From an uncultured Chloroflexia bacterium (GTDB lineage: Bacteria > Chloroflexota > Limnocylindria > Limnocylindrales > CSP1-4), in contig CAVVNQ010000015.1 of assembly GCA_963749705.1 (NCBI GenBank), positions 416,001 through 480,000 on the forward strand: a stretch of DNA of 64,000 nucleotides. Reading direction: 5' to 3'. Shown one piece after another: positions 10,295 through 35,706 of the stretch; positions within the stretch are counted from its first letter, which is position 1; every line of letters begins with the position of its first letter. Under the pieces are notes generated by a model. It did no database searches. It had not been told where the DNA came from and saw nothing but the letters and a program-made list of their open reading frames with translations. Position numbers and translations under genes: made by a program.

Positions 10295-10436
10295 CGCCGT
10301 GCCTTACTGACTGCCCGGACGAGGACGCGCAAGACGGTCCGCCAACTCAGGTCCAGAAAGCACTTCATCGAACCGTGGCGGGACCGGATTCTCTCCGCGG
10401 CGAGCGTCTGACACGGGCGCGATGGTTCCGGACGGG

Positions 10437-10886: not shown

Positions 10887-10942
10887 CAGCCCGCTGCCGC
10901 CTGGCCGTCGCTGTTCGCAGCCGCGGGCGGACGCGATCGACG

Positions 10943-12985: not shown

Positions 12986-13224
12986 CCGCGATGGCGCTCC
13001 CCAGACTCCGGGATGTCGGGCTCTTCGACACGGCAGGCGGGGTGCCTGGGCTCGAACCAGGCAGATTCGGGCGCCTGTCACATCGACGGTTGTAGCCGTC
13101 GGGGCCGCGGATGTCCAAGACGTAGATTCGCTCGCAGCTACACCACCAGGGTTATCGATCCCCCGGCGCACGCAGGCAAACGACCTGACAGCGCCCTGGC
13201 GTCATGCTCGGCAGGTCGGCCTTG

Positions 13225-14175: not shown

Positions 14176-14338
14176 GGCGCGCCACCCTCCGTGGGCTCCT
14201 GTCTCCCCAGTCCGTTGATCCGACTGCACCGTACTCCTCGGTTTCCGGTCGCGCACCCCGTGAAATCGTGCTTCTTGCGCGGACCGGCGCAGGAGCCAGT
14301 GGCGGCCTGCCCCTTGCGTCCAGGCGATAATCGACGCG

Positions 14339-15265: not shown

Positions 15266-15281
15266 CGGCGGCCGTCCGGGG

Positions 15282-18663: not shown

Positions 18664-21393
18664 TCAGCGCGTCGTCAGTGCGGCCACCACCAGCCCGTCG
18701 CGATCCTCGAACGAGAACCCGTGCTCCGCGAGCAGCTCATGCATCGGCGCGTTGTCCGGTGACAGCTGCGCGATAACGCGCCCGACGTGCTCCTTGCGGC
18801 TGACCGCGATGGCCGAGCGCACGAGCTGGGCGCCGATCCCGCGGCGCTGCCAGGCGTCAGAGACGATCAGGGTGAGGCTCTTGTCGTCGCTCGCATGCAC
18901 GCGCGACAGCCGCGCGATGCCGGCGATGACCGGGCCGTCGGCCGTCGGCAGCTCGGCGACGAGCACGATCTCGCGGTCATAGTCGACGAAGCAGATCCGG
19001 GTCAGGCGCTCGTGGGCGGTCCGCTCGGCGAGGGCGAAATCGGTGCCATAACGGGCCTGGACGGTCTCGCGGGACAGCGCGGCATGGAACCGGGCAAGGC
19101 CCGGCTCATCCTCGGGCCGGATGGGGCGCACCTCGAACGGCACGCCGTCGCTGGTCACGTAGTCGCGCGCATAGTCGTGCGGGTACGGCCGGATCGCCAG
19201 CCGCGGCAGGTCGGCGTCATCGATGGTGGCCGGGTGAAGGACGACGCGGGCGTCGAGCGCGATGATCCGCTCGGGCGATGCCAGCAGCGGGTTGATGTCG
19301 ATCTCGGCGATCCGGGGCTGCTCCGCGACCAGCTCGCTGAACCGGACAAGCAGCGCGGCGAGGACGTCGACGTCGATCGGCTTTCGACCCCGAACGCCGC
19401 GCAGCGCGCCGGCGATCTTGGTGTGCTCGATCAGGCGCCTGGCCAGGGTCGTGTTGAGCGGCGGAAGGGCAAGCGCGCGGTCGCGGAAGACCTCGACCAG
19501 CTGGCCGCCCATCCCGAACAGGAGGACCGGTCCGAACTGCGGATCGGGGCTGCTGCCCACGATCAGCTCGTAGCCGCTCCAGTTGATCATCGGCTGGATC
19601 GTGACGCCCTCGAAGTGCTCGGCGCCGGCCTTGGCCGTGACCGAGTCCCGGATCGTCTCGAACGCCTCGCAGACGGCCTCGGGCGTGCGCAGGTTGAGGA
19701 CCACGCCACCCACGTCGGTCTTGTGGGTCACCGTCCGGCTGAGCAGCTTCGCGACCACCGGGTAGCCGATGTCCGCGGCAGCCGCACAGGCCTCCTCCGG
19801 GGTATGGGCAAGCTCGGTGTCTGTGATCGGGATCCCGTACGCGGCCAGGACTTTCTTGCTCTCGTACTCGGTGAGCAGGGTCCGGCCCTCGGCGCTGACC
19901 TCGGCGATGATCCGGTCGACCTCCTCGCGGAACTCGCCGCGCTCCGGAGCGACGGGCAGCGACGGCGTCTCGTACAGCGCCTTGAGGTTGTTCGCGTACC
20001 GCCACATGTGGTTGAACAGCACGCACGCCGTGTCCGGGTAGGCGAACGTCGGGATGCCGGCCGCGCGCAGGATCGCCGCGCCCTCCTCGACGTCCGCGCC
20101 GCCCATCCACGACGCGAGCACCGGCTTGCCCTCGATCCGGGCGTGCTTGACCAGCGCCCGGGCTGTGGCGGTGGGGTCGGTCATCGCCTGGGGCGTGAGG
20201 ATCACCAGCAGGCCATCGGTCTCGGGATCCGCCGCGGCGACCTCGAGCGCCTTCGCGTACCGCTCGGGCGGTGCGTCGCCGATGATGTCGATCGGGTTGT
20301 TGTGGCTCCAGACCGACGGCAGCACCGCGTTCAGACGATCCATGGTCTCGGGCGTGAGCTCGGTGAGCTCGCCGCCGCCGGAGATCAGGGCATCGGTCGC
20401 GAGCACGCCCGGCCCGCCCGCGTTGGTCACGATCGACAGCCGCCGGCCCGCCGGCCGCGGCTGCTTGGCCAAGATCTCCGACACTTCGAACAGCTCGCTG
20501 ATCGAGTTCACGCGCAGCACGCCGGCCCGCCGGAACGCGGCGTCCAGCACGTCGTCGGACCCGGTCAGCGAACCGGTGTGCGAGGCGGCGGCCTTCGCCG
20601 CCTGCGCGGTGCGACCGGGCTTGATCACGATGATCGGCTTGGTCAGCGCGACCTCGCGCGCGGACGACAGGAACGCCCGCGCGTCGCCGATGGTCTCCAT
20701 GTAGATGACGATGCTGTCGGTGTTGGGGTCGTCGCCGAGATAGTCGATGACGTCGCCCCAGCCGACGTCGAGCATCGAGCCCAGCGACACGATCGAGCTG
20801 AAGCCGACGTCCTCGTGCGCGGCCCAGTCCAGGATCGCGGTCAGCAGCGCGCCCGACTGGGACACGAAGCCGACCCGCCCGGCCGCCGCGATCCCCGCCG
20901 CGAACGTGGCGTTGAAGCCGCCCACCGGGTTCATGATCCCCAGGCAGTTGGGGCCGACGACGCGGATCCCGTATCGGCGCGCCGCGGCGAGCACCTGTCG
21001 CTCGAGCTCGACGCCCGCCTCGCCGATCTCCTTGAAGCCGGCGCTGATGATGATCACGCCGCGGACGCCCGCCTCGCCGCACTCCTCGACCAGACCGGGG
21101 GCGGTTCCGGCCGGGGTCACGATCACGGCCAGGTCCACCGGCTCGCCGATCGCGCCGATCGACGGGTAGGCCTTGACGCCCAGGATCGCCGGGCGGGTCG
21201 GGTTGACCGGGTAGACGGTGCCGCCGAACGGCGATGACAGCAGGTTCCACAGGATCGTGCGCCCCACGGAGCCGGTCTTCTCGGTTGCCCCGATCACGGC
21301 GACCGACCGGGGATGGAAGATCGCGTCGAGCGGGTGGCGGTCGACGTGGAGGATGTCGGACGACGGGTCGGTGATCTTGGTTGCGAGCGACAT
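18664..21393 (-). CDS. Bifunctional acetate--CoA ligase (ADP-forming)/GNAT acetyltransferase (Pat/YfiQ-like)
   Basis: [54 protein letters not shown]-grasp, EIDINPL, C-terminal GNAT (AWQRRGIG). Confidence 0.93.
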
Positions 21394-21632
21394 CGGTGCA
21401 GGACCTCTGGTCGGGCGCCCCGGCGCGGGCGCGGCTGGGCGGCGATGGAAGACGCGACCTCCCACGCGGAGCGGCGGGTCGTGCGATGTCAAGGGTCGGC
21501 CAGGCGCCCGTCGATCACAAGGGGCCGGATGGCGAGTCGGCGGCCGATGCGGCCCCCGCGGAGGGGGCCGATCCGCCGGTGGTTCCCGGGACCGCGGCGC
21601 CGTCACCCGGGTCGTCCCGGGAACATGCGTCG

Positions 21633-21915
21633 TCAGCCGCCCGACACCGCGGGGATGACGTGGATGTCGTCGCCGGGCGAGACCGGCGCATCGAGACCGG
21701 ATCGCTCGCCCGCGACGAACACGTTGAGGTGGGTCCGGATCGTCCGGCCCGGCATCGACCAGGCGATTGCGCAGCCCGGGCACACGCGCGTCGAGGTCGT
21801 CGATCACCTCGGCCAGCGTCCGTCCGCTGGCCGCCATTCGGCGCTCGGTTCCCGGAAACAGCGCGACCAGCGAACGTGGCAGGTGGACCACCACGCCGGG
21901 GACCGGGTCAGTCAA
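21633..21915 (-). CDS. MoaD/ThiS family ubiquitin-like protein; apparent 1-nt insertion near 21744
   Basis: [25 protein letters not shown] in one frame, [10 protein letters not shown]...[10 protein letters not shown] in the next; C-terminal GG. Confidence 0.85.
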
Positions 21916-22981
21916 CGACGGCGGCCTCGACGGACCAGACCGGCGGCAGGTTGTCGGCGAGGAGCGACCAGCTGTCCCCTTCGTCCGTGCTGCCGTAGAC
22001 CTGGCCGGTGCTGGTCCCGAAGTACACGCCCACGGGATCGCGGTCGTCCACGGCCATCGCCTCTCGAAGCACGCCCAGGTAGGCGTCCTGCTGCGGCAGC
22101 CCGTCGCCGGCCCTGATCCAGGAGTCACCGCCGTCGTTGGTTCGCCACACGGCCGCACTGGCATCGGGCATGTAGCGGCCGCGGTCGGCTCCGTTGAGCG
22201 GGATCGTCCAGGCGGTCAGCGGGTCGCGGGGGTGGCTCGCCATCGGGAAGCCGAAGTCGGACGGCAGCCCGCTGCTGACCTCCTCCCACTGCAGCCCGCC
22301 GTTGGACGAGCGGTAGACGCCACAGTGGTTCTGCTGGTAGAGGTGCTCGCCGCCGTCGGCGGCCATGACCAGCTTGTGCACGCACTGCCCGAACTCGGGG
22401 TACCTGTCGGGGTGGAACTCCGCGCGGACGCCGCGGTTGCGGGTCTCCCACGTCCGGCCGCCGTCGCGCGTCTCGAACGCGCCGACCGCGGAGGCCGCGA
22501 CCCACATCCGGTCGGGATCCTCGCGGTGGGGGACGATCGAGTGGAGGCACAGGCCGCCGGCCCCGGGCTGCCACTCGGGTCGTGTCGGGTGGTTGGTCAG
22601 CCCCTCGACGTGCTCCCACGTGCGCCCGCCGTCGGGACTCCGGAACAGGCCCGCCGGCTCGACGCCCGCGTAGACCACGCCGTGCGCGGCCGTGACGTTC
22701 CACACGGTCGCCACCTTGGGGCCTGCGTCGCCATAGCTGAGCCCCTCGCTCGAATGCGTCCACGTCGCGCCCAGGTCATCACTCCGCCAGACCGCGGGTC
22801 CGTACCATGGGCTGCCGCCGCCGGCGAACAGTGCGCCCGAAGCCGCGTCCCGGGTGACGTCGTGGATCGGCCACCCGTCGCACAACGGTCCGCGAAGCGA
22901 CCACGACCGGCGGTCGGCGTCGCCGTCGAGGACGAAGGCGCCTTTGGGGGTTCCGAGCAGCAGCGCATGTCGCGTGGCCAT
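21908..22981 (-). CDS. BNR/Asp-box repeat beta-propeller protein (sialidase-like)
   Basis: Repeated S/TxDGGxTW boxes; [35 protein letters not shown]. Confidence 0.9.
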
Positions 22982-23390: not shown

Positions 23391-24431
23391 TCAGGCGAGG
23401 AACAGGTTGAACCCGTAGCCGACGGCCAGGATGCCGGCGGCGACGATGACGACGAACACGGCCAGCAGCCGCGGCTTCATGACCCGCCGCAGGATGACCA
23501 GCTCCGGGAAGGACAGCGCCGTGACGGCCATCATGAATGCGAGCGCCGACCCGAGCGGGAGGCCCTTGCCCAGGAGCGCCTCGATCACCGGGATCGTGCC
23601 CGCCGCGTTGCTGTACAGCGGGACGCCGAGGGCCACCAGCGCCGGCACGGCGACGGGGTTGTCGCGGCCGCCGAGCTCCACGACGAGGTCCGTGGGCACG
23701 AACCCGTGGATCAGGGCGCCGACGGCGATCCCGGCCACGACGAACGGCCACACGCGGCGCACGATATCGACGGTGGATCGCCAGGCGTCCCGAAGGCGCT
23801 CGTCGAGCGTGGGCCGGACCGCGCCAATCCCCGCGCCCGCGCGGATCGTCCACACGTAGTCCTCGACATACCGCTCCAGGCCCAGCCGGCCGATGAGCAG
23901 CCCGGCGGCGATCGCGACGGTGAGGCCGGCGGCCATGTAGGCAAGCGCGATGCCGGGGCCGAACAGGCCCCACAGCAGGACCAGCGCGACCTCGTTGACC
24001 ATCGGGCTGGCCACCAGGAACGCGAACGTGACGCCCAGCGGGACGCCGGCCTCGACGAACCCGATGAACAGCGGGACGGCCGAGCACGAGCAGAACGGCG
24101 TCAGGACGCCGAAGCCGGCCGCGGCGACGGTGCCGGGCAGGATCCCGCGGCCGGCGAGGGTCCGCCGGACACGCTCGGGCGACACGAACGAGCGCAGGAA
24201 CGACACGACGGTCACGATCCCGGTGAGCAGGAGCATGACCTTGGGCACGTCGTAGACGAAGAACGCGAGCGCGTCGCCCGCCTGCGACCCGCGCTCGAGC
24301 CGGAGCCCCTGGTACGCGAGCCAGTCGGCCGCGGGCAGGTTGACCTGCCATGCGACGACCCAGGCGACCGCGGCCAGGGCGACGATGAGCCCCAGCGGGA
24401 GGTGCGGACGGCGGGCCGCGATGGCCGTCAT
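23391..24431 (-). CDS. ArsP/DUF318 family permease
   Basis: TPFCSCSAVPLF, ASPMVNE, GVPLYSN, ALSFPE motifs. Confidence 0.9.
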   Translation of the reverse strand: MTAIAARRPHLPLGLIVALAAVAWVVAWQVNLPAADWLAYQGLRLERGSQAGDALAFFVYDVPKVMLLLTGIVTVVSFLRSFVSPERVRRTLAGRGILPGTVAAAGFGVLTPFCSCSAVPLFIGFVEAGVPLGVTFAFLVASPMVNEVALVLLWGLFGPGIALAYMAAGLTVAIAAGLLIGRLGLERYVEDYVWTIRAGAGIGAVRPTLDERLRDAWRSTVDIVRRVWPFVVAGIAVGALIHGFVPTDLVVELGGRDNPVAVPALVALGVPLYSNAAGTIPVIEALLGKGLPLGSALAFMMAVTALSFPELVILRRVMKPRLLAVFVVIVAAGILAVGYGFNLFLA

Positions 24432-24757
24432 CGCAGCACCTCGTCGAGCGCGGCGCGTGCCCCGGCCACGGCATCGGCGTCGCGCTCGTAGTACAGGAAC
24501 CGCGCGTTCGCCTGGTGGCGGCTGGCCCGCACGAGGCCGGCGTCACGGAGCCTCGCCAGGTGGTTGCTGACGTTGTTCTCCCGCGCGCCCAGCGTCGCCG
24601 CAAGCTCGCACACGCAGTGCGGCCCGCCGGCGAGCAGGTGCAGGATCCCGGCCCGTACCGGATCGGCGAGCAGGGCCGCAGCCGCAGACGCGGCGGAGAC
24701 GTCGGGCGCCGGCAGGTCCAGCCGGGGCGTGGGGATCACGGGCAGCTCTGTGGTCAT
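24428..24757 (-). CDS. arsR: ArsR/SmtB family repressor with CVC motif
   Basis: LADPVRAGIL, HCVCELA, VSNHLARLRDAGLV. Confidence 0.88.
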   Translation of the reverse strand: MTTELPVIPTPRLDLPAPDVSAASAAAALLADPVRAGILHLLAGGPHCVCELAATLGARENNVSNHLARLRDAGLVRASRHQANARFLYYERDADAVAGARAALDEVLR

Positions 24758-24764
24758 GCGTGAA

Positions 24765-24788
24765 ACATCTCACGCTGCGCTGAGATGT
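24765..24788. promoter_or_regulatory. ArsR-type operator inverted repeat
   Basis: ACATCTCA-N8-TGAGATGT perfect inverted repeat directly upstream of the arsR start. Confidence 0.75.
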
Positions 24789-24878: not shown

Positions 24879-24945
24879 TTATAAGTGTCGATGACATATA
24901 CCAGCAGTACACACATGCATGGTGCATGAATATCTCGAGACATGC
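24879..24945 (+). promoter_or_regulatory. AT-rich promoter/operator region for the sulfur-redox operon
   Basis: Local AT enrichment; palindromes TGTC-GAT-GACA (24886-24896) and CATGCA-TGG-TGCATG (24914-24928). Confidence 0.5.
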
Positions 24946-24963: not shown

Positions 24964-25347
24964 ATGAGCGAGATCGACCAGATCCAGACGTCGCTCCTTC
25001 GCGCGCTCGCCAGCCCGCACCGGCTGCGGATCGTCCAGCTGCTGGGCGAGCGGCCGCACGAGGTCAACGAGCTGGCCCGCGAGCTCGGCATGGGGCAGGC
25101 GACGGTCTCACAGCACCTGGGCTCGATGCGGGCCGTCGGGCTCGTCGAGGCAACCCGAGACGGCCGCTCCGTCCGATACGGCCTGAGCGACCCCGAGATC
25201 CTCGCCGCCTGCGAGCTCATGCGCGCCGTCCTCGTCCGCCGCCTGTCATCGATGGGCGATCTCGCCAGCGCCGCCGGGCGCGCCACACCCACGACGGATC
25301 TCCCACGACGCGAGCCCGTCACCCCCAGCCAGGTAGGTCATCCGTGA
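24964..25347 (+). CDS. ArsR/SmtB family transcriptional regulator
   Basis: LRALASPHRLRIVQLL, TVSQHLGSMRAVGLV; single Cys in the C-terminal helix (AACELM). Confidence 0.9.
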   Translation: MSEIDQIQTSLLRALASPHRLRIVQLLGERPHEVNELARELGMGQATVSQHLGSMRAVGLVEATRDGRSVRYGLSDPEILAACELMRAVLVRRLSSMGDLASAAGRATPTTDLPRREPVTPSQVGHP

Positions 25348-25751
25348 GCGACACCCTGTCCATCGTCCTGTTCTCCGGCACGGCAGACAAGCTGCACGCC
25401 GCCGCGACGCTCGCCGCGGGCGCGGCAGCCATGGACCGCCCGGTCAACATCCTGCTCCAGTACTGGGCGCTCGACGCGTTCCGGTCCGAGCGGATCGAGG
25501 CGGACCAGGGCCTCGCCTTCGACGCGGGGGCACCCGGCAGGACCAAGCCAGTGGCGGGCACGGCCGCGATCCCCTGGCTCGAGACGTTCCGGATGGCCAA
25601 GGAGCTGGGCGAGGTCTCGATCCTGGCCTGCGCGGGGTCGCTCGAGGTGCTGGGCATCGATGCCACGACGCTCGACCCGCTGGTGGACGACTCCGGTGGG
25701 ATCGCCACATTCCTCATGGCCGCCGAGGGCGGCCAGGTCCTGTTCATCTGA
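25344..25751 (+). CDS. DsrE/DsrF/DrsH-like (DsrE2-type) protein
   Basis: LSIVLFSGTADKL, AKELGEVSILAC, GIATFL...QVLFI. Confidence 0.8.
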   Translation: MSDTLSIVLFSGTADKLHAAATLAAGAAAMDRPVNILLQYWALDAFRSERIEADQGLAFDAGAPGRTKPVAGTAAIPWLETFRMAKELGEVSILACAGSLEVLGIDATTLDPLVDDSGGIATFLMAAEGGQVLFI

Positions 25752-25788
25752 CAGCTCCGTTCGGAGCGCAAGGCAAGGAGCACCGTTC

Positions 25789-26160
25789 ATGGCCGACGCG
25801 GAAAAGCTCGTGTTCATGGTGACGCACGGGCCGGACCATCCGGAGCACGCGACGATCCCGTTCGTGATGGCGGGGGCCGCGCTGGCGTCCGACGTCGCCG
25901 TCGTGCTCGGGTTCCAGGCCAACGGCGTCGAGCTCGTCAGGCGCGGCGTCGCGGAAACGGTCGCGGCCGACGGGTTCCCGCCGCTGGCCAAGCTCCTCGA
26001 CGACGTCCGGGAGCTGGGTGCGCAGCTGCTCGTCTGTGGCCCCTGCATCAACAGCCGCGGCATCGTCGCGCCGGACGACCTGGTCGCCGGTGCCGAGGTC
26101 GTGGCCGCCGGCCGCTTCGTGGCCGAGATCACGTCCGCTACCAACAGCCTCGTCTACTAG
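25789..26160 (+). CDS. DsrE family sulfur-relay protein
   Basis: THGPDHPEHATIPF, LLVCGPCINSRGI, EVVAAGRF; AAGGAG RBS. Confidence 0.88.
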   Translation: MADAEKLVFMVTHGPDHPEHATIPFVMAGAALASDVAVVLGFQANGVELVRRGVAETVAADGFPPLAKLLDDVRELGAQLLVCGPCINSRGIVAPDDLVAGAEVVAAGRFVAEITSATNSLVY

Positions 26161-26174
26161 GAGATCGAATTCCG

Positions 26175-26435
26175 ATGACTGCAACGCTTACCGAACTCGA
26201 AGGCATCACCGCCGCCAAGGTCATCGACGCCCGTGGCGCCGCCTGCCCCGGCCCGCTGCTCGAAGCCAAGAAGGGGATGGGCACCGTTCCCGTCGGGTCC
26301 GTGATCGAGATCCTGTCCACCGATCCGGTCACCAAGACCGACATCGGCGCCTGGTCGGCCAAGGTCGGCCATGACTTCCTCGGCACCCTCACGGCCGATG
26401 GCTACGACCGCGTGTTCGTCATTCGCCGCAAGTAG
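26175..26435 (+). CDS. tusA: TusA family sulfurtransferase
   Basis: IDARGAACPGPLL CPxP motif, EILSTDP...DI..W..K.GH. Confidence 0.92.
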   Translation: MTATLTELEGITAAKVIDARGAACPGPLLEAKKGMGTVPVGSVIEILSTDPVTKTDIGAWSAKVGHDFLGTLTADGYDRVFVIRRK

Positions 26436-26505
26436 CCAGCCCGATGGTCCCGCGGGCGTTCACCACGCCCGCGGTCGACCCGATCGATCCAGGAGTCAGC
26501 GTCTG

Positions 26506-26946
26506 ATGACAGCCCCCGTCGAGACCGAGCCGCGAGCCTCCGGAGACACCTTCGTCCCCAGGATCCTCGTGTTCTCCACGAACAACATCTCCGACCCGGG
26601 GATCGACCTGGCCGGCAGCTCGCACATGCACTACTCGCCGGGCGTCGACGTCATCGGCCTGCCGTGCACGAGCGGGATCCGTCCGTCGTGGATCCTGCAC
26701 GCGCTGCAGACCGGGTTCGACGGCGTGTTCGTCGCGTCCGACGGCGACGAATGCGCCTACCTGCCCGACTGCGCCGAGCGCTCGTCTCGGATCATGAGCG
26801 AGTCGCAGGCGACTGCGTGAGCTCGGGATCGATCCCAGCGGCTGCGGATGGCAGCCATCTGCTCGGTCTGCGCCGAGCCATTCACACGGCACGTCCAGGG
26901 GTTCTCGACGGCCCTGGTGGCGCTCGGACCGGCGGTGGCGAGGTGA
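26506..26946 (+). CDS. mvhD: MvhD/FlpD-like iron-sulfur subunit (variant); two compensating indels near 26811 and 26837 create an internal stop
   Basis: PRILVF...DLAG...LPCTSGIRP.WILHAL..GFDGVFV; shifted frame gives LRELGIDP, then RLRMAAICSVCAEPF to TGA 26944-26946. Confidence 0.8.
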
Positions 26947-26951
26947 CTGCG

Positions 26952-29725
26952 ATGACCCAGACGACCCAGGCCTGCGCCGCTCCGGGACCGACGAGGAGCG
27001 CTACGACGTCCTCGTCGTGGGCAGTGGCATCGGCGGCATGGAGTCTGCCCTCAAGCTCGGCGACATGGGCTACAAGGTCCTGCTGGTCGAGAAGGAGGCC
27101 AGCGTGGGCGGGAAGATGATCCTGCTCAGCAAGGTGTTCCCGACCCTCGACTGCGCGAGCTGCATCTCGACGCCCAAGATGGCGGCGACGATCCATCACC
27201 CGAACATCACCGCCATGACCTACAGCCGGGTGGACGGGATCCGGCGGTCGGCCGACGGCCGGTTCCACGCCTCGGTCACCCAGAAGGCGCGCTACGTCGA
27301 CGAGGCGACCTGCACCGGCTGCGCGAAGTGCGAGACCGCGTGCACGGTCGCCGTGCCCGACCAGTTCAACGCCGACCTCGTGGCCCGCCGGGCCGCCTAC
27401 ATCGCGTTCCCGCAGGCGGTGCCCAAGAAGGCCGTCATCGACCGCGCCGGCAGCTCGCCGTGCTCGTTCGCCTGCCCGGCCGGGATCCAGGCGCACGGCT
27501 ACGTGTCGCTGATCCGGAGCGGCGAGTACGAGAAGGCGTATCGCCTGGTGCTCGACGCGACGCCGCTCGTGGGCACGCTCGGGCGGGCGTGCTACGCGCC
27601 GTGCGAATCGGAATGCACCCGCGGCTCGCTCGAGGGCACGCTGCCGATCCGGCGGCTCAAGCGCTTCGTGTCCGACGCGCACGATGCCACGGGCGATGGC
27701 CCCGGGATCGAGGTCGCGCCGCCCAATGGTCGCAGGGTCGCCATCGTGGGCTCCGGCCCCGCCGGGCTGACCGCGGCCTGGCAGCTCGCCCGCAAGGGAT
27801 ACGGCGTGAAGATCTTCGAGGCGGCCCCCGAGCCCGGCGGCTACCTCCGGCTCGCCATCCCGTCGTACCGCCTGCCCGAGGCGGTCGTGGAGCGCGACAT
27901 CGACAACGTGCGAGCGATCGGGGTCGAGATCGCGACGAGCTCGCCCGTCCGCGACCTCGAGGGCCTCAAGACTGACGGGTTCGATGCGGTCCTCGTCGCG
28001 ACCGGCACCAACCGCTCCACGAGCCTGGGTGTGCCGGGCGAGGACCGCCTCGGGGTGCTGGGTGGAACCGACTTCCTGCGCAAGGTCAAGCTCGACGAGC
28101 CGCTGGACGTCGCCGGCCGCCGCGTGGTCGTCGTCGGCGGCGGCAACGTCGCCATGGACGTCGCGCGAACCGCGCGCCGCCTCGGCGCCGCGTCCGTGAC
28201 CGTCGCCTACCGGCGTGGCCGGGACGAGATGCCCGCCCACCACGTCGAGGCCGACGACGCCGAGAAGGAAGGCGCCGTGTTCAGCCTCCAGGTCACCCCG
28301 GCCGAGGTCCTGGGTGACGAGAACGGCGCCGTCAGCGGACTGCGCTGCACCCGGATGGCGCTCGGCGCGCCCGATGCCTCCGGTCGCCGAAGCCCCGAGC
28401 CCATCCCGGGCAGCGAGTTCACGCTGCCGTGCGAGATCATCGTGAGCGCGATCGGGATGAAGGCCGACACCAGCGCCTTCGCCGGTGGGCTCGCCACGAG
28501 CCCGCGCGGCCTCCTGGTCGCCGACCCGGCGACCTGCCAGACCGCGACGCCCTTCATCTTCGCCGCCGGCGACGTCGTCCACGGGCCGACCGACATCACG
28601 CGCGCCGTCGGCGAGGGCCGCCGGGCGGCGCACATGATCGACCGCTGGCTCACCGGCGGCATGCTCGACGGCTTCGACGACCGGCTGCCGGTGGTCGACA
28701 AGGAGCAGGTGCTGGCGCGCCAGAAGACCTACTCGCTGCGACGCCCCGCGTCCGAGGGCACCACCCTGGTGGCGGCGCCAACCGATTTCCGCGAGGTGGA
28801 GGCGCCGCTCAGCGAGGCGGAGGCCCGCGAATCCGCCGGGCGCTGCCTGGACTGCGCCGTGTGCTCGGAGTGCTCCGAGTGCGTGGCCGCGTGCCCGGTC
28901 GACGGCTGCATCGACCTCCACGCTCGCGACAAGCAGCACGATGTCGAGGTCGGCGCGGTCGTCGTGTCGACCGGCTTCAAGCTGTTCGCCGCGGACCTCA
29001 AGCCGGAGTACGGCTTCGGCCGGTTCAAGAACGTGATCACCGGGATGCAGATGGACCGCCTGCTGGCGCCCACCCGGCCGTTCAACACGATCCTGCGCCC
29101 GGGTGACGGCAAGGTGCCGGACCGGATCGCCTACATCCTGTGCACCGGGTCGCGCGACGAGACGGTGGGCAACCCGCTGTGCTCGCGCTTCTGCTGCATG
29201 TACTCGATCAAGCAGAACCAGCTGCTCATGGGCGCCCTGCCGCTGGCCGACGTGACTGTCCACTACATGGACATCCGGGCGCCTGGCAAGCGCTACGACG
29301 AGTTCTACGAGCAGGCGAAATCGATGGGCGCCAACTACGTCAAAGGCCGCGTCGCCGACGTCCGGGAGCTGCCCAACGGCGACCTCGTGCTCAAGTACGA
29401 GGACATCGAGAACGGGGGCGGCATCGTCGAGGCCGAGTACGACCTGGTCGTGCTGGCCGTGGGCGTGCAGCCCAACCGCGATGCGGAGCAGCTGTTCGAG
29501 GTCGAGGAGCTGTCGCTCGACGAATGGAACTACGTGGACGAGCCCGAGGAGGACCTGAACCCCGGCCAGACGAGCATCCCGGGGGTCTACGTGGCGGGCG
29601 CCGCGTCGGGCGCCAAGGACATCGCCGACTCGATCCTCCACGCCGGCGCCGCGGTCGCCCAGGTGGCCGCCCACCTCGAGGCCACCAGGGTCGAGACCCT
29701 GGAGATCGAGATGGTGCCGGCATGA
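26952..29725 (+). CDS. hdrA: HdrA-like flavoprotein with inserted GltD/NfnL-like NAD(P)H-binding module (HdrL-like); probable frameshift in first ~15 codons
   Basis: YDVLVVGSGIGG, KVFPTLDCASC, CTGCAKCETAC, FPQAVP, PCSFACP/GRACYAPCESEC, GSGPAG, GGGNVA..YRR, CSECSECVAACP, CTGSRD..CSRFCCMYSIK. Confidence 0.88.
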
Positions 29726-31524
29726 ACCACGAGGACCTGCGCTCAACGGCCGCTCAACCGAGTCCGGCCCAGGGCGACAACGCCGACATGGACGGCCCCA
29801 CGGGGCGCCGCATCGGGGTCTACGTCTGCCACTGTGGCGGCAACATCTCCGACTACGTCGATGTCGAGAAGGTCATCGCGGACATCAGCGATGCCGGCGA
29901 TGTCGTGGTTGCCAAGCACGAGATGTTCGCCTGCTCCGACGCCACCCAGAGCGACATGGTCGCCGACATCGAGGGCAACGCGCTCGACGGCCTGGTCGTC
30001 GCGTCCTGCTCGCCCAAGCTCCACACCTACACGTTCCGCGGCGTCGCCTCGCGTGCCGGGCTCAACCCCTACGAGTACACCCAGGTCAACATCCGGGAGC
30101 AGTGCTCGTGGGTCCACACCGACGACCCGGCGGGTGCCACCGAGAAGGCGACCGCGCTGGTTCGCGCCGGGATCTCCCGGACGCGGAACACGGTGCCGCT
30201 CGTGCCGCTCGTGGTCGACACCATTCCCCACACGCTCGTCATCGGCGGCGGCATCGCGGGCCTGCGCACCGCGGTCGGCCTCGCCGACATCGGCCTCAAG
30301 GTCACGCTGGTCGAGCGCGAGGACGTGCTCGGTGGCTGGGTCGGCCGGTTCGGCCCGATGTTCCCCCACGATCGCGACGGTCGCGAGCTGGTGGCCACGC
30401 TGGTCGCCGAGATCCGCAAGCGGCCGTCGATCACCGTCCTCACCGGCGCGGAGATGGTCGGCAAGGCCGGCAGCTTCGGCAACTACGAGGCGACCATCCG
30501 GATCGGTGGCGAGGGCGCCGGCACGATCCAGGTCGCCGTCGGATCGATCGTCGTCGCCACCGGCTTCGACAGCTATCAGCCCGAGGCAGGGGAGCTCGGC
30601 TACGGGATCGAGGGCGTCGTCACGTTGCCCGAGTTCAAGGAGCTCGTCGACGGATCGAGCGGCCCGCTGGCGTGGCACGGGCGACCCGTCCGCAGCGTCG
30701 CCTACGTGTACTGCGTGGGCAGCCGCGGGACCGCCGGGTGCGCCAACGCCTACTGCTCGCGGTTCTGCTGCGCGGCAACCGTCCAGACCGCGGTCCAGGT
30801 CTCCGGGCTCGATCCGGCGATCCGCCAGTACCACCTCTACCGGGACATGCGGACGTACGGCAAGTTCGAGCCGCTGTACACCGAGGCGCGCAAGGCCGGG
30901 TCCGTGTTCCTCAAGTTCGGCGATGACGCTCCGCCGGCCGTCGAGCGGCGCGAGGATGGCGGCCTCACGGTCACCGTCACCGACCTGCTGACCGAGCGCA
31001 CGGAGCTCGCGCTGCCCGTCGACCTTGTCGTGCTCGTCACGGGCATGGTCCCACGCGACAATCACGACCTGGTGGACGTGCTCAAGCTGCCCGCCGGCAC
31101 CGATGGCTTCTTCAACGAGATCCACCCCAAGCTCCGCCCCGTGGAGACCGTCGTGGACGGGGTCCTGATCGCGGGTGCGTGCCAGGGTCCCAAGACCTCG
31201 TCGGAGTCCGTGGCCTCGGGCCTGGCGGCCGTGACCCAGAGCGCCGCGGTGCTCAAGAAGGGGTTCACGGAGCTCGACCCGCTGGTCGCGATCGTGGATC
31301 CGGACACCTGCACGGCGTGCGGCGATTGCCTGACCGCCTGCCCGTACGACGCGATCTCGATGGCCGAGGAGGGTGACCGGCACTTCGCCGTGATCAGCCC
31401 CACCGGCTGCAAGGGATGCGGAGGCTGCGTCCCGATGTGTCCTGAGAATGCCATCGACCTGCTCGGCTATACCGACGCCCAGGTCACCGCGATGATCGAG
31501 AGCCTGGTGGAGGTACCGGCATGA
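29722..31524 (+). CDS. hdrA: Second HdrA family flavoprotein with C-terminal 2x[4Fe-4S] ferredoxin domain
   Basis: RIGVYVCHCGGNI, VASCSP, NIREQCSWVH, IGGGIAG, CVGSR..CSRFCC, HPKLRPVE, CTACGDCLTACP and CKGCGGCVPMCP. Confidence 0.92.
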   Translation: MNHEDLRSTAAQPSPAQGDNADMDGPTGRRIGVYVCHCGGNISDYVDVEKVIADISDAGDVVVAKHEMFACSDATQSDMVADIEGNALDGLVVASCSPKLHTYTFRGVASRAGLNPYEYTQVNIREQCSWVHTDDPAGATEKATALVRAGISRTRNTVPLVPLVVDTIPHTLVIGGGIAGLRTAVGLADIGLKVTLVEREDVLGGWVGRFGPMFPHDRDGRELVATLVAEIRKRPSITVLTGAEMVGKAGSFGNYEATIRIGGEGAGTIQVAVGSIVVATGFDSYQPEAGELGYGIEGVVTLPEFKELVDGSSGPLAWHGRPVRSVAYVYCVGSRGTAGCANAYCSRFCCAATVQTAVQVSGLDPAIRQYHLYRDMRTYGKFEPLYTEARKAGSVFLKFGDDAPPAVERREDGGLTVTVTDLLTERTELALPVDLVVLVTGMVPRDNHDLVDVLKLPAGTDGFFNEIHPKLRPVETVVDGVLIAGACQGPKTSSESVASGLAAVTQSAAVLKKGFTELDPLVAIVDPDTCTACGDCLTACPYDAISMAEEGDRHFAVISPTGCKGCGGCVPMCPENAIDLLGYTDAQVTAMIESLVEVPA

Positions 31525-31769
31525 CGAACCCGAACGGCAGGGAGGTTCGCGAGGTCGTTCGCGACGAACCGGTGATGCGGGGTCGGATCCTCGCCGCGCT
31601 CCACGACGGCCCGCTGACCGTGCCCGAGATCGCCGCCGCGATCGACGCACCCACGCACGAGGTGGTGTTCTGGGTCATGGGCATGCGCCGCTACGGCTGG
31701 CTGGCCGAGATCAAGGCCACGCCCGTGGACGGCTACTTCCAGTACGAGCCCACCGGGCGGGTGTCCTGA
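31521..31769 (+). CDS. Small winged-helix-like protein
   Basis: RILAALHDGPLTVPEIAAAI...VVFWVMGMRRYG; translationally coupled on both sides. Confidence 0.75.
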   Translation: MTNPNGREVREVVRDEPVMRGRILAALHDGPLTVPEIAAAIDAPTHEVVFWVMGMRRYGWLAEIKATPVDGYFQYEPTGRVS

Positions 31770-32974
31770 TGACCGCCATCGCAGAGCCGGTCGCCACCGC
31801 AGCCACCCGAGTGGACACCGGGCTCTACCCGGACCTCCAGCGCTTCGGCGCGACGGACATCAGCGCCTGCTTCAGCTGCGGGACCTGCACGGCGATCTGC
31901 CCCCTGTCGAAGACGGATTCGGCGTTCCCGCGCCGGATCATCCGCTACGCGCAGGTCGGCATGAAGGACGCGCTCCTGTCGAGCAAGGAGCTGTGGAGCT
32001 GCTACCAGTGCGGCGAATGCGCCGAGACGTGCCCCACGCAGGCCGATCCCAGCGAGTTCATGGCGGCCGCTCGCCGGTACGCGATCGCGAGCTACGACCG
32101 GACGCGGATCGCCTGGACGATGTACACGCGCCCCGTCGGCGCCATCGTGCTGGCGGTCCTCCTGGCGGCGTTCTTCGCCCTGTTCATGTACTCGGCCCAC
32201 GGGCCGCAGAGCGGCGAGTCGCTGGCGATCTTCGAGTTCATCCCCGAGGAGCTCATCCACAACACCGGCATCGTGGTGATGATCCTGGTGGTCCTTGCCG
32301 GGCTGGCGGGGATCGCGAGCATGGCCCGCGCGATCGCCAGGCGCGAAGGCGTTGGGCTGCGGACCGTGTTCGGCAGCCGGGCGGCGGTTCGCCGCTCCGC
32401 TCACGCCGCCTGGGTGGCGATCGGCCGGGAGTCCCTCGGCCAGGTCCAGTTCCGTGCCGAGTGCGACGCGGACACGACAGGCGTGCCCTGGTACCGGCGC
32501 CGAGGCCTCGTCCACGCTCTGACGGTGTGGGGCTTCATCGGCCTGCTCGCCGCCACCGGCCTCGACTACGGACTGGCGCTCATCGGCATCAAGGAGACCG
32601 GCGCGCCGGTGCCGGTGTGGTACCCGATCCGCCTGCTGGGCACGGTCGCGGGCTTCATGCTCGTGTACGGCGTCACGGTGCTGATCATCGACCGCTACCG
32701 GAAGGCGAACCGGTCGGTCACCCGGTCGACGATCGCCGACTGGATGCTCCTCGGCCTGCTGTGGGTCACCGGCGTCACGGGCTTCGTCCTGGAGCTCGCG
32801 CTGTACCTCCCGAGCGCGCCCGCCTGGGGCTACTGGGTGTTCCTGGTCCACGTCGCCGTCGCCCTCGAGCTCGTGCTGCTCGCACCGTTCATGAAGCTCG
32901 CCCACGCGGTCTACCGGCCGGTTGCGCTGTTCTTTGCCGCGCTGGCCGACCAGCCCGGGGAGGAAGCCGCTTGA
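31769..32974 (+). CDS. QmoC-like protein: HdrC-type 2x[4Fe-4S] domain fused to a cytochrome b-like membrane domain
   Basis: CFSCGTCTAICP, FPRRIIRYAQVG, WSCYQCGECAETCP, then about 6 TM helices with His in LVHALTVWGF, LVHVAV and KLAHAVYRP. Confidence 0.85.
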   Translation: MTAIAEPVATAATRVDTGLYPDLQRFGATDISACFSCGTCTAICPLSKTDSAFPRRIIRYAQVGMKDALLSSKELWSCYQCGECAETCPTQADPSEFMAAARRYAIASYDRTRIAWTMYTRPVGAIVLAVLLAAFFALFMYSAHGPQSGESLAIFEFIPEELIHNTGIVVMILVVLAGLAGIASMARAIARREGVGLRTVFGSRAAVRRSAHAAWVAIGRESLGQVQFRAECDADTTGVPWYRRRGLVHALTVWGFIGLLAATGLDYGLALIGIKETGAPVPVWYPIRLLGTVAGFMLVYGVTVLIIDRYRKANRSVTRSTIADWMLLGLLWVTGVTGFVLELALYLPSAPAWGYWVFLVHVAVALELVLLAPFMKLAHAVYRPVALFFAALADQPGEEAA

Positions 32975-33043
32975 CCAACGCCGCCGACACACCCATCCCG
33001 GCTGCGCGCTGAGCGGGCCGGCCCGGCCACCGAGGAGACCAAG

Positions 33044-33538
33044 ATGACCCAGACCCTCCCGCAGGTCACGCACGACAACCACGAGCGACTCCTGCACCAC
33101 GTCAACCAGATGCCGGAGATCGGCGATTCGCTGCTGGCCGCGCCCGCGGACCGGGTGCGGACGCAGCTCCAGGAGCTGGGCACGTTCCTGAATGCCACGC
33201 TGCTCCCGCACGTGACGGCCTCCGAAGCCTCGATCTACCCGGAGCTCGAGCGGATGATGCAGAACCGGCACTCGATGACGCCGATGCGCCGCGAGCACGA
33301 CCAGATCCGCCTCCTGGTGGCCGAGATCGTGAAGCTGTCCGCGGACCTCGATACCCGCCACGTCACCATCGGCCGCGCGATCGCGCTGCGGCGCGTCGTG
33401 TTCCAGCTCTACGCGCTGCTCAAGGTGCACCTCGCCGAGGAGGAGACGTACATCCGGCTCGTCGAGCAGGGCGTCACCGCCGACGTGAACGAGCTCCTCG
33501 CGGAGGCGATGGCACACCCCGCGGTCCCGGAGGCCTGA
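33044..33538 (+). CDS. Hemerythrin-like domain protein
   Basis: H...LLPHxxxxE..IYP, MRREHDQI, KVHLAEEETY; GAGGAG RBS. Confidence 0.75.
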   Translation: MTQTLPQVTHDNHERLLHHVNQMPEIGDSLLAAPADRVRTQLQELGTFLNATLLPHVTASEASIYPELERMMQNRHSMTPMRREHDQIRLLVAEIVKLSADLDTRHVTIGRAIALRRVVFQLYALLKVHLAEEETYIRLVEQGVTADVNELLAEAMAHPAVPEA

Positions 33539-33603
33539 CCCGGGTGACCGGTCCGGTCGCCCGACCGCGGCGCGATCCTCGCCCGGTTATAGTCCAGCGG
33601 CAT

Positions 33604-34113
33604 ATGGGTGCCACGAGCCGCGCTGCGCAACCCGCCGACGCCATCGGGGATGTCGAGGAGGAGGAGGCCGCCTCCGGAGGCGGCAAAGCCGCGTCCGACG
33701 AGACGGCGCCCCGGATCGCATCCGGCGTCGACGAGGCCGGCATTCCGATCCACCGCGGCTGGGCGCCGCAGGGCGGGCACCACCGCTGGATGGAGCCGTT
33801 CGTGCTCGCGATCCTGGCCGGCGGCGGTGCGCACGGCTACGCCATCATCGGCGACCTGGGCCAGATGGGGATCACCAACGGCCCGGTGGACGTCGGCCAG
33901 GTCTACCGGACCCTGCGCGATCTCGAGGAGACGGGCCAGGTCCGGTCGTCATGGTCGACCGAGGGCACCGGTCCGGCGCGCCGCGACTACGAGCTCACGC
34001 CGGCCGGGTACGCGACGCTCGACGAATGGGCCGCCCTGATGAAGGAACGCGCCCGCCTGATCGCGGAGTTCGACGCCCGCTACCTCGAATGGGTCGCGGT
34101 ACCCAGGAAGTAG
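33604..34113 (+). CDS. PadR family transcriptional regulator
   Basis: EPFVLAIL..AHGYAI, GQVYRTLRDLE, GPARRDYELTPAG; TATAGT -10-like box upstream; start uncertain. Confidence 0.88.
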   Translation: MGATSRAAQPADAIGDVEEEEAASGGGKAASDETAPRIASGVDEAGIPIHRGWAPQGGHHRWMEPFVLAILAGGGAHGYAIIGDLGQMGITNGPVDVGQVYRTLRDLEETGQVRSSWSTEGTGPARRDYELTPAGYATLDEWAALMKERARLIAEFDARYLEWVAVPRK

Positions 34114-34147: not shown

Positions 34148-34639
34148 CTAGAGCAGCTGCGTCATCGCGTGGTCGATCCCGCGGGCGAGCGCGTCCTTCT
34201 GCTCATCGGACAGGTGCTGCTCGAGGACGCCGACGTACAGCTCCTCCTCGGCGATGTGCACCTTGAGGATCGAGTACAGCCGGTAGAGCGCCCGCCGGAG
34301 GGCCAGCGCCTCCACGCCCGTGAGACGGCAACCCTCGACGTGCTGCCGGTAATGGCCGAGCTCCTCGATCAGGCCGCGCATGGCGCGGTGCTCCTCGCGC
34401 ATCGGCGTCATCGAGTGCCGGCCGCCCATGAGAGTCTCGAGCTGCCCGTACAGCAGCGTCTCGAACGTCTCCATCTGGGGGATGAGCTGGCGCGTGATGA
34501 TGAGGTACTCCTCCTCGAACACGCCGTGGATCGCCTCGCAGTCCACCTCGCCGATCATCTCGGCCAGCACGCGCAACTGGTCGACATGGGGCATCAGGCG
34601 TGCGTTGTGATCGTTGCTGGTTGCCCGGAGGGACAGCAT
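34148..34639 (-). CDS. Hemerythrin-like domain protein (paralog of 33044..33538)
   Basis: RHSMTPMREEH and LYSILKVHIAEEELY shared with the paralog; CAGGAG RBS. Confidence 0.75.
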   Translation of the reverse strand: MLSLRATSNDHNARLMPHVDQLRVLAEMIGEVDCEAIHGVFEEEYLIITRQLIPQMETFETLLYGQLETLMGGRHSMTPMREEHRAMRGLIEELGHYRQHVEGCRLTGVEALALRRALYRLYSILKVHIAEEELYVGVLEQHLSDEQKDALARGIDHAMTQLL

Positions 34640-34810
34640 CTGGGGCAGCTCCTGAAGGGTCGCGGCATCGGGGGCGACGGCTCGACGATCGCACCAGTGT
34701 CGCCGGTTTCGACAATGCCGGGTGTCACGTTGGCGGGACCGGACGGCCCGGTCCGCCTGCGTCGCGCCAAACGGCGCCGCCCGCCCCATCTCCGGCCGCA
34801 GTTCCCGTGC

Positions 34811-34848: not shown

Positions 34849-35706
34849 ATGGATGTACCGGGAGGCCGCGGGGGCATGCGCGTATCCGAGCTCGCCCGTC
34901 GCGCCGGCGTCGCGGCGTCGGCCGTGCGCTGGTACGAGACGTCGGGGGTTCTGCCGCATCCCGACCGGGCGGGCAACGGCTACCGCACGTACGGGGAGGC
35001 CGATCTCGCCCGGCTCCGCCTGGTCGTCGCGCTGCGCAGCCTCGGGCTCGTGCCCGCAGAGGCCGGGCGGCTGGCAGGGCTGTGCCTCGAGCACGGCGCC
35101 ATCGACGCCGGGCTGGCCCCGGTCCTCGCCGAGCAGCGACGGGTCATCGCCCGGAGACGGGATGACCTGGACCGGCTCGAGGGCCAGCTGCTGGATCTCG
35201 AGATGACGATCGCGGCCGCCGGCCGCGCTACCCGCAGGGAGGTATCCGTGGCCCCGATCCGCGTGCTGTTCGTGTGCACCCATAACTCCGCGAGGAGCCA
35301 GATCGCCGAGGCGCTGCTCCAGCGCTACGGCGGTGCCGATTTCGAGGTGAGCTCGGCGGGGACCGAGGCGACCCGCGTCAACCCGTTCGCGATCCGCACC
35401 CTGGCGGAACAGGGGATCGACTGGTCGGCCGCCCGCAGCAAGGTGATCACGGAGTTCCTCGACCAGCAGTTCGATTACGTCATCACGGTCTGCGACCGCG
35501 CCCGCGAGACGTGTCCCGTGTTCCCGGGCTCGACCAACACGCTCCACTGGGGGCTGGACGACCCGTCCGAGGTCGAGGGCACGGACGAGCAGCGGCTGGC
35601 CGCGTTCCGGCGCACGGCGATGGAGGTCACCAGCCGCCTGCGCCCGTTCATCGAGGTTGCCCGGCGAGCGGCCGGCCGTGCGCCGCGCGCGGCCGCCGCC
35701 GGCTGA
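34849..35706 (+). CDS. MerR family HTH regulator fused to a thioredoxin-type arsenate reductase ArsC/LMW-PTP domain
   Basis: RVSELARRAGV..SAVRWYE..G, GNGYRTY; then VLFVCTHNSARSQIAE, TVCDRARETCPVFPG, HWGLDDP. Start is 34849 or 34876. Confidence 0.88.
   Translation: MDVPGGRGGMRVSELARRAGVAASAVRWYETSGVLPHPDRAGNGYRTYGEADLARLRLVVALRSLGLVPAEAGRLAGLCLEHGAIDAGLAPVLAEQRRVIARRRDDLDRLEGQLLDLEMTIAAAGRATRREVSVAPIRVLFVCTHNSARSQIAEALLQRYGGADFEVSSAGTEATRVNPFAIRTLAEQGIDWSAARSKVITEFLDQQFDYVITVCDRARETCPVFPGSTNTLHWGLDDPSEVEGTDEQRLAAFRRTAMEVTSRLRPFIEVARRAAGRAPRAAAAG

Follow-up and report, generated by a model that had tools for sequence, protein, structure and literature searches.

A modular Hdr/Qmo-like complex encoded with TusA/DsrE sulfur carriers in uncultured Chloroflexota

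We analyzed a 64,000-nucleotide (nt) stretch of contig C15 (CAVVNQ010000015.1, positions 416001-480000; hereafter, the window) from the 3.6 Mb assembly of an uncultured soil Chloroflexia bacterium, which comprises 22 contigs and is 88% complete. The window has a G+C content of 71% and carries a cassette in which genes for sulfur carriers of the DsrE and TusA types precede those for a predicted membrane complex of the Hdr/Qmo kind. A first-pass annotation, made from the letters of the window, had listed ten co-oriented and closely spaced genes in this block. All ten are indeed present, tightly packed on the + strand between 24964 and 33538, and we add two conserved neighbors, a PadR-family regulator and a second hemerythrin-domain protein.

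The block opens with the gene of an ArsR/SmtB-family regulator (arsR, 24964..25347, +; Pfam HTH_5, 6.5e-14; NCBIfam HTH_metalloreg, 80.5 bits), whose reading frame is open from 24919 with ATG 24964 as the likely start. Two DsrE-type sulfur carriers follow, the first of the DrsE_2 family (25344..25751, +; Pfam PF13686, 2.5e-11) and the second of the DsrE family (25789..26160, +; Pfam PF02635, 4.7e-16), then the sulfur carrier TusA (26175..26435, +; Pfam PF01206, 8.8e-17) and a variant MvhD/FlpD-like protein (mvhD, 26506..26946, +; Pfam FlpD, 1e-18), whose gene is disrupted as assembled. The next gene, hdrL (26952..29725, +; Pfam Pyr_redox_2, 3.5e-41, and Fer4_20, 3.9e-18), encodes an HdrL-like HdrA::GltD protein of ∼920 amino acids (aa). 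Its middle matches GltD-type NCBIfam models (465 bits) and both of its ends match HdrA models, so that a GltD/NfnB-type NAD(P)H-FAD-2x[4Fe-4S] module appears inserted in the center of an HdrA. A second, full-length HdrA of 600 aa (HdrA2, 29722..31524, +; NCBIfam HdrA2/HdrA models, 468 and 375 bits) has an N-terminal four-cysteine domain, a FAD domain and a C-terminal 2x[4Fe-4S] ferredoxin domain, and matches the solved methanogen HdrA chains 8rvu and 5odc (PDB) at E ∼1e-105.

Downstream of hdrA2 lie the genes of a small winged-helix protein (wHTH, 82 aa, 31521..31769, +), which gave weak helix-turn-helix matches and has no cysteine, and of a QmoC-like subunit of 401 aa (31769..32974, +; Pfam Fer4_8 and a weak NarI-type match; NCBIfam NF038018), whose residues 19-108 match HdrC chains in the PDB at E ∼1e-14. 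Hemerythrin-domain protein 1 (33044..33538, +; Pfam PF01814, 4.6e-12) closes the block. The PadR-family regulator (33544..34113, +; Pfam PadR, 1e-13) comes next, followed by the convergent gene of hemerythrin-domain protein 2 (34148..34789, -), which is 33% identical to hemerythrin 1 and gave no Pfam match at 1e-6. The arsR/dsrE, hdrL/hdrA2, hdrA2/wHTH and wHTH/qmoC junctions are overlaps of 4 or 1 nt; mvhD ends 5 nt upstream of hdrL, and the other intergenic gaps measure 6-70 nt.

This gene set is conserved and common. At 80% identity or above, we found at least 120 cluster representatives of HdrA::GltD, 901-944 aa long, the few named ones being Chloroflexota or Candidatus Limnocylindrales. 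With this protein as the marker, tblastn confirmed 589 relatives among species-representative genomes, nearly all of them metagenome-assembled genomes of Chloroflexota, with several labeled Cellulomonas or Propionibacteriaceae. From the 589, 78 loci were kept for neighborhood counts: HdrA::GltD was present in 77, TusA in 73, MvhD in 72, HdrA2 in 71, wHTH in 70, QmoC in 69, DrsE_2 in 61, ArsR and each of the hemerythrins in 55, PadR in 51 and DsrE in 45. The six core genes (TusA, MvhD, HdrA::GltD, HdrA2, wHTH and QmoC) stand in the same order in 65 of the 78 loci, 60 of which also have a DsrE-type gene, and most of the remaining 13 loci are interrupted by contig ends. Gene clustering exceeds chance. 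Among 401 evenly sampled genomes of the phylum, 18 have orthologs (at least 57% identity). In a plasmid collection, none of the 117 matching records covered 80% or more of HdrL, the matches being confined to the GltD-type parts.

The residues expected to bind cofactors or sulfur are retained across these relatives, as counted in tblastn matches covering at least 80% of each query. The active-site Cys24 of TusA (in C-P-G-P) is invariant in 81/81 matches and Cys96 of DrsE_2 in 64/64, and DsrE keeps Cys86 in 51/51 matches and Cys83 in 49/51. In the QmoC-like subunit, eight cysteines (two CxxCxxCxxxC motifs) and H164, H249, H361 and H379 are kept in 63/63 matches, and hydropathy indicates about six hydrophobic helices; by these features, the membrane part looks as expected for a di-heme cytochrome b. 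The MvhD variant retains only two of the six aligned cysteines of the solved MvhD 5ODC_D, and has a conserved set in which C54 and C83 are kept in 86/86 matches, C89 in 80/86, and C120 and C123 in 79/86.

We observed two further forms of the cassette, which differ from that in the window in its outer modules. In the first, found in nine loci of other families and as a second copy in a genome of the same genus, the order is (DsrE)-TusA-MvhD-HdrL-HdrA2-wHTH-HdrC-like ferredoxin-CCG protein, often with a DrsE_2 gene thereafter, and QmoC is absent; HdrL of this form is 57-66% identical to that of the window. The CCG protein has one complete motif (C-x34-CC-x33-CxxC) in 10/10 matches and a cysteine-free N-terminal half, and its HdrC-like partner is 30-41% identical to the N-terminal domain of QmoC. 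Of the 401 sampled genomes, 10 have orthologs of the CCG protein; its next-best full-length relatives (in genomes G092 and G146, 27-31% identical) have no HdrA nearby. The second form, found in six loci via weaker matches to the wHTH profile, reads (ArsR)-DsrE-TusA-MvhD-HdrA without GltD-HdrA2-wHTH-QmoC. Its small HdrA aligns to HdrL residues 16-173 and 630-893, so that the GltD unit, ∼455 residues long, is an insertion. All three forms keep TusA, the MvhD variant, two HdrAs, wHTH and an HdrC-like domain, and usually a DsrE-type gene; the NAD(P)H module varies, as does the choice between cytochrome b and CCG.

The first-pass annotation had called the complex an orphan and noted that the partners of known systems, HdrB included, do not lie in the window. 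There is indeed no CCG domain in the cassette or the window, and the CCG genes elsewhere in the genome (on contigs C2, C7, C8 and C3) include no ortholog of the sister-form CCG protein. "Orphan" nevertheless goes too far, because the basal sister cassettes carry an HdrC-like protein and a single-CCG HdrB-like protein in the place of QmoC. The two forms can also stand side by side, as in a Limnocylindrales locus (L066) where a QmoC-type cassette is followed ∼4 kb downstream, on the other strand, by HdrC-like and CCG genes (10015-11450, -).

In a FastTree phylogeny of 82 HdrL sequences with Shimodaira-Hasegawa-like (SH-like) support and midpoint/outgroup rooting, the TusA-linked HdrL proteins formed one clade (support 100), within which the QmoC form was one group (94) and the CCG form was basal and paraphyletic. 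Seven HdrL proteins of 1100-1500 aa from other Chloroflexota were the outgroup. Eleven of the 82 rows have neither a QmoC nor a CCG label, the QmoC match being missing, cut by a contig end or less than 80% covered. With this fast method and this rooting, the QmoC form looks derived, a cytochrome b having replaced the CCG domain. The association of tusA and dsrE with hdrA held as the first-pass annotation had supposed: TusA occurs in 73 of the 78 loci counted above, in 9/9 loci of the CCG form and in 6/6 of the GltD-less form, whereas tusA, dsrE, wHTH and qmoC were absent from 7/7 loci of the more distant HdrL genes that we examined.

The overall architecture is that of Qmo, in which two HdrA-like flavoproteins and an MvhD-type module go with QmoC, an HdrC-like 2x[4Fe-4S] part plus a di-heme cytochrome b (PMC3333476). 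This likeness extends to the canonical Apr-linked QmoABC of sulfate reducers and green sulfur bacteria, and the cassette might on that ground be a bona fide QmoABC that moves electrons between menaquinol and APS reductase. However, tusA and dsrE occupy the position of aprBA and sat, and we found no Apr, Sat or Dsr in the genome: the best match to the AprA model reached 18.5 bits against a cut-off of 642, and DsrA and Sat were not found in this 88% complete assembly. In 5/5 other cassette-bearing genomes, two of them complete chromosomes, AprA matches stayed at 22-42 bits, below the same cut-off. The QmoC-like subunit aligned to model positions 6-360 of 360 of NF038018 (qmoC) at 207.1 bits, and the copy on contig C11 (see below) at 211 bits, against an equivalog cut-off of 300. 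The cassette further differs from canonical QmoABC in its separate, cysteine-poor MvhD gene upstream (the canonical MvhD-like domain is the C terminus of QmoB), in the ferredoxin domain that ends HdrA2, in the GltD/NAD(P)H insert of its QmoA-like subunit and in the extra wHTH gene. A dedicated partnership with APS reductase is extremely improbable on these observations, and in this respect the first-pass annotation judged correctly.

Other likenesses are in print. Neukirchen et al. 2023 describe Qmo proteins of a "type II" nearer to HdrA, which occur in organisms without Dsr or Apr, where their role is unclear, and report that QmoC is interchangeable with HdrBC or HdrD (PMC10504309). The similarity of HdrA2 to methanogen HdrA, and the exchange of QmoC for HdrC plus CCG, fit this description, although the available portions of that paper do not mention a TusA/DsrE linkage, a GltD insert or a wHTH gene. 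HdrL together with MvhD was named earlier by Strittmatter et al. 2009 in Desulfobacterium autotrophicum and other anaerobes (PMC2702500), and the cassette shares with it a fusion of the HdrA and glutamate-synthase types, with a predicted site for NAD(P)H, encoded beside mvhD. Other HdrL proteins, in contrast, are 1100-1500 aa long and ∼35-46% identical, and fall outside the TusA-linked clade. A Chloroflexi-wide preprint mentions Hdr, in its accessible part, only beside hydrogenases (10.1101/2021.08.23.457424). The description of the system as new, made in the first-pass annotation, therefore stands for the cassette, on which we found no paper in a search that had subscription-journal reviews of HdrA modules outside its scope, but not for HdrL with MvhD or for "type II" Qmo.

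The remaining partners of known Hdr systems are missing from the window as well, as the first-pass annotation had stated; AprA apart, for which there was no match at cut-off, such genes lie on other contigs or far away on C15. In comparison with HdrABC-MvhADG, the cassette lacks an HdrB with two CCG domains, and neither a hydrogenase nor a formate dehydrogenase adjoins it as electron input through MvhD; the two [NiFe]-hydrogenase loci are on C6 and C4. A single GcvH-family gene stands at C15:179697, ∼236 kb from the first base of the window.

A more specific comparison is with the type II sHdr system of Tanabe et al. 2024 (shdrC1B1AHB3-etfAB-emo with tusA, dsrE and lbpA), which has a menaquinone outlet and is frequent in Chloroflexota; its clusters open with TusA/DsrE, and its sHdrB3 is an HdrC-HdrB fusion that binds one non-cubane cluster (PMC11094781). 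Two shdr-like clusters in relatives, including the family of the window, have tusA and dsrE genes at their 5' end, and their DsrE is 29-35% identical to that of the cassette. The cassette resembles this system in the TusA/DsrE genes that head an Hdr-like operon, in an HdrA-family flavoprotein and in a menaquinone outlet, and its CCG sister form, with an HdrC-like and a single-CCG protein, also in a single non-cubane-cluster unit of the HdrC/HdrB type. Together with the 36% identity between the N-domain of QmoC and the N terminus of sHdrB3, and with TauE sulfite exporters near 9 of the 78 loci, these features would fit an oxidation of carrier-bound sulfur to sulfite in which electrons pass to menaquinone and NAD(P)+. 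However, an sHdrC1B1 pair, LbpA, lipoate ligase, EtfAB and EMO are all missing from the cassette, the single GcvH-family gene of the genome is distant, and the QmoC form is entirely devoid of a CCG domain. HdrA2 is just 32% identical to sHdrA, twice its length and equipped with extra domains, and the genome holds no sHdrA-like gene of sHdrA size at E <= 1e-25. We also dropped the identification of wHTH with sHdrH of shdr clusters: in a type II shdr cluster of a relative, a gene for 278 aa follows shdrA, beyond an 83-aa membrane open reading frame (ORF), and wHTH gave no blastp match (E <= 0.001) to its product. Sulfur oxidation to sulfite by this cassette is thus very unlikely.

The genome offers a second context for the regulator and the carriers. 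On contig C4, within C4:262000-281999 (∼7430-10622 of that stretch, - strand), a paralogous set of ArsR-DrsE_2-TusA-DrsE_2 and a 110-aa ORF precedes a type III SQR-like gene, which scored 321 bits to SQR_III, below the cut-off of that selenoprotein-subtype model. The two ArsR proteins are 53% identical and the DrsE_2 proteins 52%. From these similarities and gene orders, the same kind of regulator and carrier set appears to serve an SQR flavoenzyme on C4 and the Hdr/Qmo-like complex here. The cassette thereby resembles detoxification operons of the ArsR(SqrR/BigR-like)-SQR type, with a similar ArsR and DrsE_2 set, but has a multi-subunit Fe-S/flavin/heme complex as the catalytic partner in place of the quinone-reducing flavoenzyme. 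Beside the C4 operon, we also noted a ferredoxin gene with a 2-oxoacid:ferredoxin oxidoreductase alpha-like gene, a P-type ATPase gene and a [NiFe]-hydrogenase large-subunit-like gene.

In the relatives, recurrent neighbors of the cassette, each in 9-15 of the 78 loci, are an OmpR-type regulator with a kinase, rhodanese, OsmC, the TauE sulfite exporter and a TPMT/TehB-like methyltransferase; TauE, rhodanese, OsmC and the two-component pair stand upstream. With the ArsR-DsrE-TusA paralogs before SQR, the TauE, rhodanese and OsmC genes form a context that suggests a response to reactive sulfur no less than an energy metabolism. Energy conservation, bifurcation and electron exchange with persulfide, all put forward in the first-pass annotation, are what we infer at most.

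SqrR/BigR-type repressors carry a cysteine pair. The cassette ArsR has one conserved cysteine only, C98 (numbered in the 142-aa ORF; invariant in 16/16 full-length orthologous matches), and scored 45.8 bits against the BigR model, whose cut-off is 155. It is probably a persulfide-type repressor, a sulfur-sensing role being suggested by its context. AT-rich palindromes stand out against the 71% G+C background at 24765-24788 and 24898-24943 of the window: ACATCTCA-N8-TGAGATGT adjoins the start of a divergent ArsR gene, and CATGCATGGTGCATG and ATATCTCGAGACAT lie 20-50 nt 5' of the cassette ArsR start. Many relatives have AT-rich elements of the "CATATA/TATATG" type at the same position, and we regard the palindromes as candidate operators. 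ATATCTCGAGACAT itself is retained in the nearest relative only, and TCTCGAGA occurs in 2/55 upstream regions, one of the two outside a window-like context. We found no operator shared between the promoters of the cassette and of the C4 SQR operon.

The wHTH protein is tied closely to the cassette. Its alignment (A1) has 12 invariant columns, and matches of at least 100 bits are confined to cassette-bearing genomes (21 places in 19 of the 401 genomes). An AlphaFold2 model (mean pLDDT 87.9) shows a generic wHTH fold, and Foldseek returned generic ArsR/MarR-type winged-helix matches only, at E >= 1e-3. The modeled fold fits a small subunit and a regulator alike, and wHTH may be either. Predicted complexes of wHTH with HdrA2 and residues 1-120 of QmoC scored 0.09 and 0.00 against a mark of 0.32, a result that bears neither way on a subunit role.

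By tblastn, the assembly proved to hold another full cassette, on contig C11, whose proteins are 89-99% identical to those of the window. In inverted orientation, C11 (127.6 kb) is collinear with the final 85 kb of C15 (C15:431281-515241) at a nucleotide identity of 85-96%, so that window positions 15281-64000 correspond to C11:66354-116433. The small contigs C22, C17, C9, C14, C20, C12 and C21 likewise duplicate pieces of larger contigs. Because of this collinearity and these other duplications, we rejected C11 as a true second copy or paralog within one genome in favor of a co-binned sister population; despite a contamination estimate of 1.3%, the bin seems to be a mixture of two related populations.

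Comparison with C11 also exposed frame lesions in the window copy. Relative to C11, where mvhD is intact (147 aa), and to other relatives, mvhD of the window has a 2-nt and a 1-nt deletion ∼25 nt apart, after which the frame is restored. The out-of-frame stretch holds a TGA at 26818-26820; we rejected a selenocysteine codon, as this TGA is missing from C11 and lies among 25 nt that are read out of frame. The hdrL ATG (26952) does not share the frame of the gene body, with 50 nt separating it from the conserved "YDVLVVGSG" codons versus 42 nt in C11. The first in-frame start is GTG 27017, and its use would remove the first strand of the FAD fold.

These two lesions within 200 nt could mark the cassette of this genome as a decaying pseudogene cluster, which would be compatible with any function in the relatives. 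The distribution is patchy too (7/23 genomes of the family of the window), and a genome of the same genus (G354, C3:29000-48999; 7373-12160 of that stretch) has lost hdrL and hdrA2 by deletion and retains half of mvhD. What is left there reads ArsR-DrsE_2-TusA-(half MvhD)-wHTH-QmoC-Hr-PadR-Hr (Hr, hemerythrin), with ∼360 bp from the mvhD remnant to wHTH. However, with locus L010 as the outgroup, codon changes across the cassette numbered 11 non-synonymous and 159 synonymous on the window branch, a tighter ratio than the 35 and 186 of the C11 branch. Constraint is not relaxed, and the lesions are therefore either very recent or assembly errors. They also lie in the most divergent, indel-rich stretch, where the co-binned populations differ, which makes an assembly error plausible. 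Decay of the window cassette is unlikely on this evidence; either the copy is intact and the assembly in error, or it was broken very recently.

In public sequencing runs, the sole exact-match DNA contig that we found (run X1) ends at 26799, just before the lesion, and contigs with "GC" after 26808 and "C" after 26833 come from RNA libraries and belong to relatives. In two RNA libraries of a single study, contigs covered each of the 30 cassette bins at an identity of at least 88%, which hints weakly at expression of related cassettes, given that DNA can be present in such libraries.

We propose that the cassette is an operon, probably repressed by its ArsR, for three sulfane-sulfur carriers and a Qmo-type membrane complex that would link NAD(P)H, menaquinone and carrier-bound sulfane sulfur; as a whole, we give this proposal an even chance of being right. 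The complex would consist of the MvhD variant, HdrA::GltD, HdrA2, the QmoC-like subunit and wHTH, the last as a subunit or a regulator. The GltD NAD(P)H module within one HdrA, the second HdrA and the di-heme QmoC-like subunit predict an electron path between NAD(P)H and menaquinone via HdrA-type flavins. A third site, common to all forms, would be served by TusA/DsrE, and there the complex would give electrons to carrier-bound persulfide or take them from it. Three observations argue for sulfane sulfur on TusA/DsrE as the partner: the carriers stay with the core throughout, a subunit of the disulfide-reductase type terminates the basal form, and the regulator and carriers are of the same kind as in the SQR operon. 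In the GltD-less form, moreover, quinone is the only recognizable terminal, so that a further partner is needed. The likeliest direction would be a joint reduction of persulfide by NAD(P)H and menaquinol, a confurcation like that proposed for Qmo with APS reductase, and the system may be part of the handling of reactive sulfur made by the cell's SQR. In its most demanding version, a three-terminal Qmo in which flavin-based confurcation or bifurcation couples NAD(P)H, the menaquinone pool and the sulfane sulfur held on TusA/DsrE, the proposal is tentative and rather unlikely.

The same modules could instead form a functional analog of FixABCX/EtfABCX, an NAD(P)H:menaquinone oxidoreductase with bifurcation or confurcation through ferredoxin. 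TusA/DsrE would then not be redox substrates, but only co-regulated or employed as a sulfur supply in cofactor or cluster upkeep. The complex has modules for both NAD(P)H and quinone, HdrA2 keeps the N- and C-terminal Fe-S domains of the bifurcating methanogen HdrA that it matches so closely, and the QmoC form has no sulfur-reactive catalytic subunit. However, other HdrL loci lack TusA and DsrE-type genes, whereas here both accompany the core across three module swaps. The basal form, moreover, has a CCG-type subunit resembling a disulfide reductase at its end, and paralogs of the regulator and carriers precede SQR. We consider a ferredoxin-linked enzyme of this kind a possible, if somewhat improbable, account.

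Several points weigh against the proposed link to carrier-bound sulfur. We infer both the contact of TusA/DsrE with the complex and sulfur as its substrate, and the QmoC form has neither a CCG/HdrB-type site nor another known sulfur-reactive catalytic site. Thermodynamically, NAD(P)H could reduce persulfide by itself, with no need for coupling to quinol. The loss of four of the six aligned cysteines from the MvhD variant leaves the internal electron path uncertain. The genome has two heme-copper oxidase genes, which fit a role in stress or detoxification better than anaerobic sulfur respiration. To these are added the patchy distribution and the frame lesions in mvhD and hdrL of the window copy; the lesions, and the loss of hdrL and hdrA2 from the same-genus genome, imply that the system is dispensable.

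The surroundings of the cassette are less constant than the cassette itself. On the upstream side, a divergent second ArsR gene and an ArsP_1 permease gene occupy 23391-24757 (-), and downstream, at 34849-35706 (+), lies a gene for a MerR-LMWPc fusion, an arsenate-reductase-like phosphatase. Both flanks are kept in only 6-8 of the 78 related loci and so are probably outside the system. Farther upstream, 18664-22164 (-) encodes a 1166-aa protein with CoA_binding, Succ_CoA_lig and ATP-grasp_5 domains (ADP-forming acyl-CoA synthetase) and a C-terminal GNAT domain, an architecture like that of Pat-like protein acetyltransferases. In the stretch 10900-15280, the G+C content is 0.675-0.686 versus ∼0.71, and a codon-bias caller called no genes.

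Overall, our analysis describes a modular Hdr/Qmo complex that is conserved, common and unstudied. New here are the lesions of the window copy relative to an intact C11, the module swaps in the sister cassettes and the paralogous carrier set before SQR. How Qmo works has been in question since at least 2012, when Ramos et al. advanced the confurcation hypothesis: menaquinol alone should not drive the reaction, and a low-potential co-donor is needed, with NADH dehydrogenase among the candidates (PMC3333476). The cassette has a candidate NAD(P)H co-donor module built into the QmoA-like subunit of a Qmo-type complex. In place of APS reductase, this complex probably has two or three small carriers, simple to produce, as its partner, which would make the coupling question testable in vitro, and the QmoC, CCG and GltD-less forms amount to a natural experiment on the role of each part.

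With 589 relatives, mostly in uncultured soil Chloroflexota, the cassette may form a junction, so far overlooked, of reactive sulfur species with NAD(P)H and respiration in soils. If the proposal is true, aerobic soil heterotrophs would gain an undescribed quinone-coupled, potentially energy-conserving reduction of protein-bound persulfide or, in reverse, a means of drawing reductant at the level of NAD(P)H from it, and the confurcation mechanism that has long been proposed for Qmo, but not proven, would have its first direct model.

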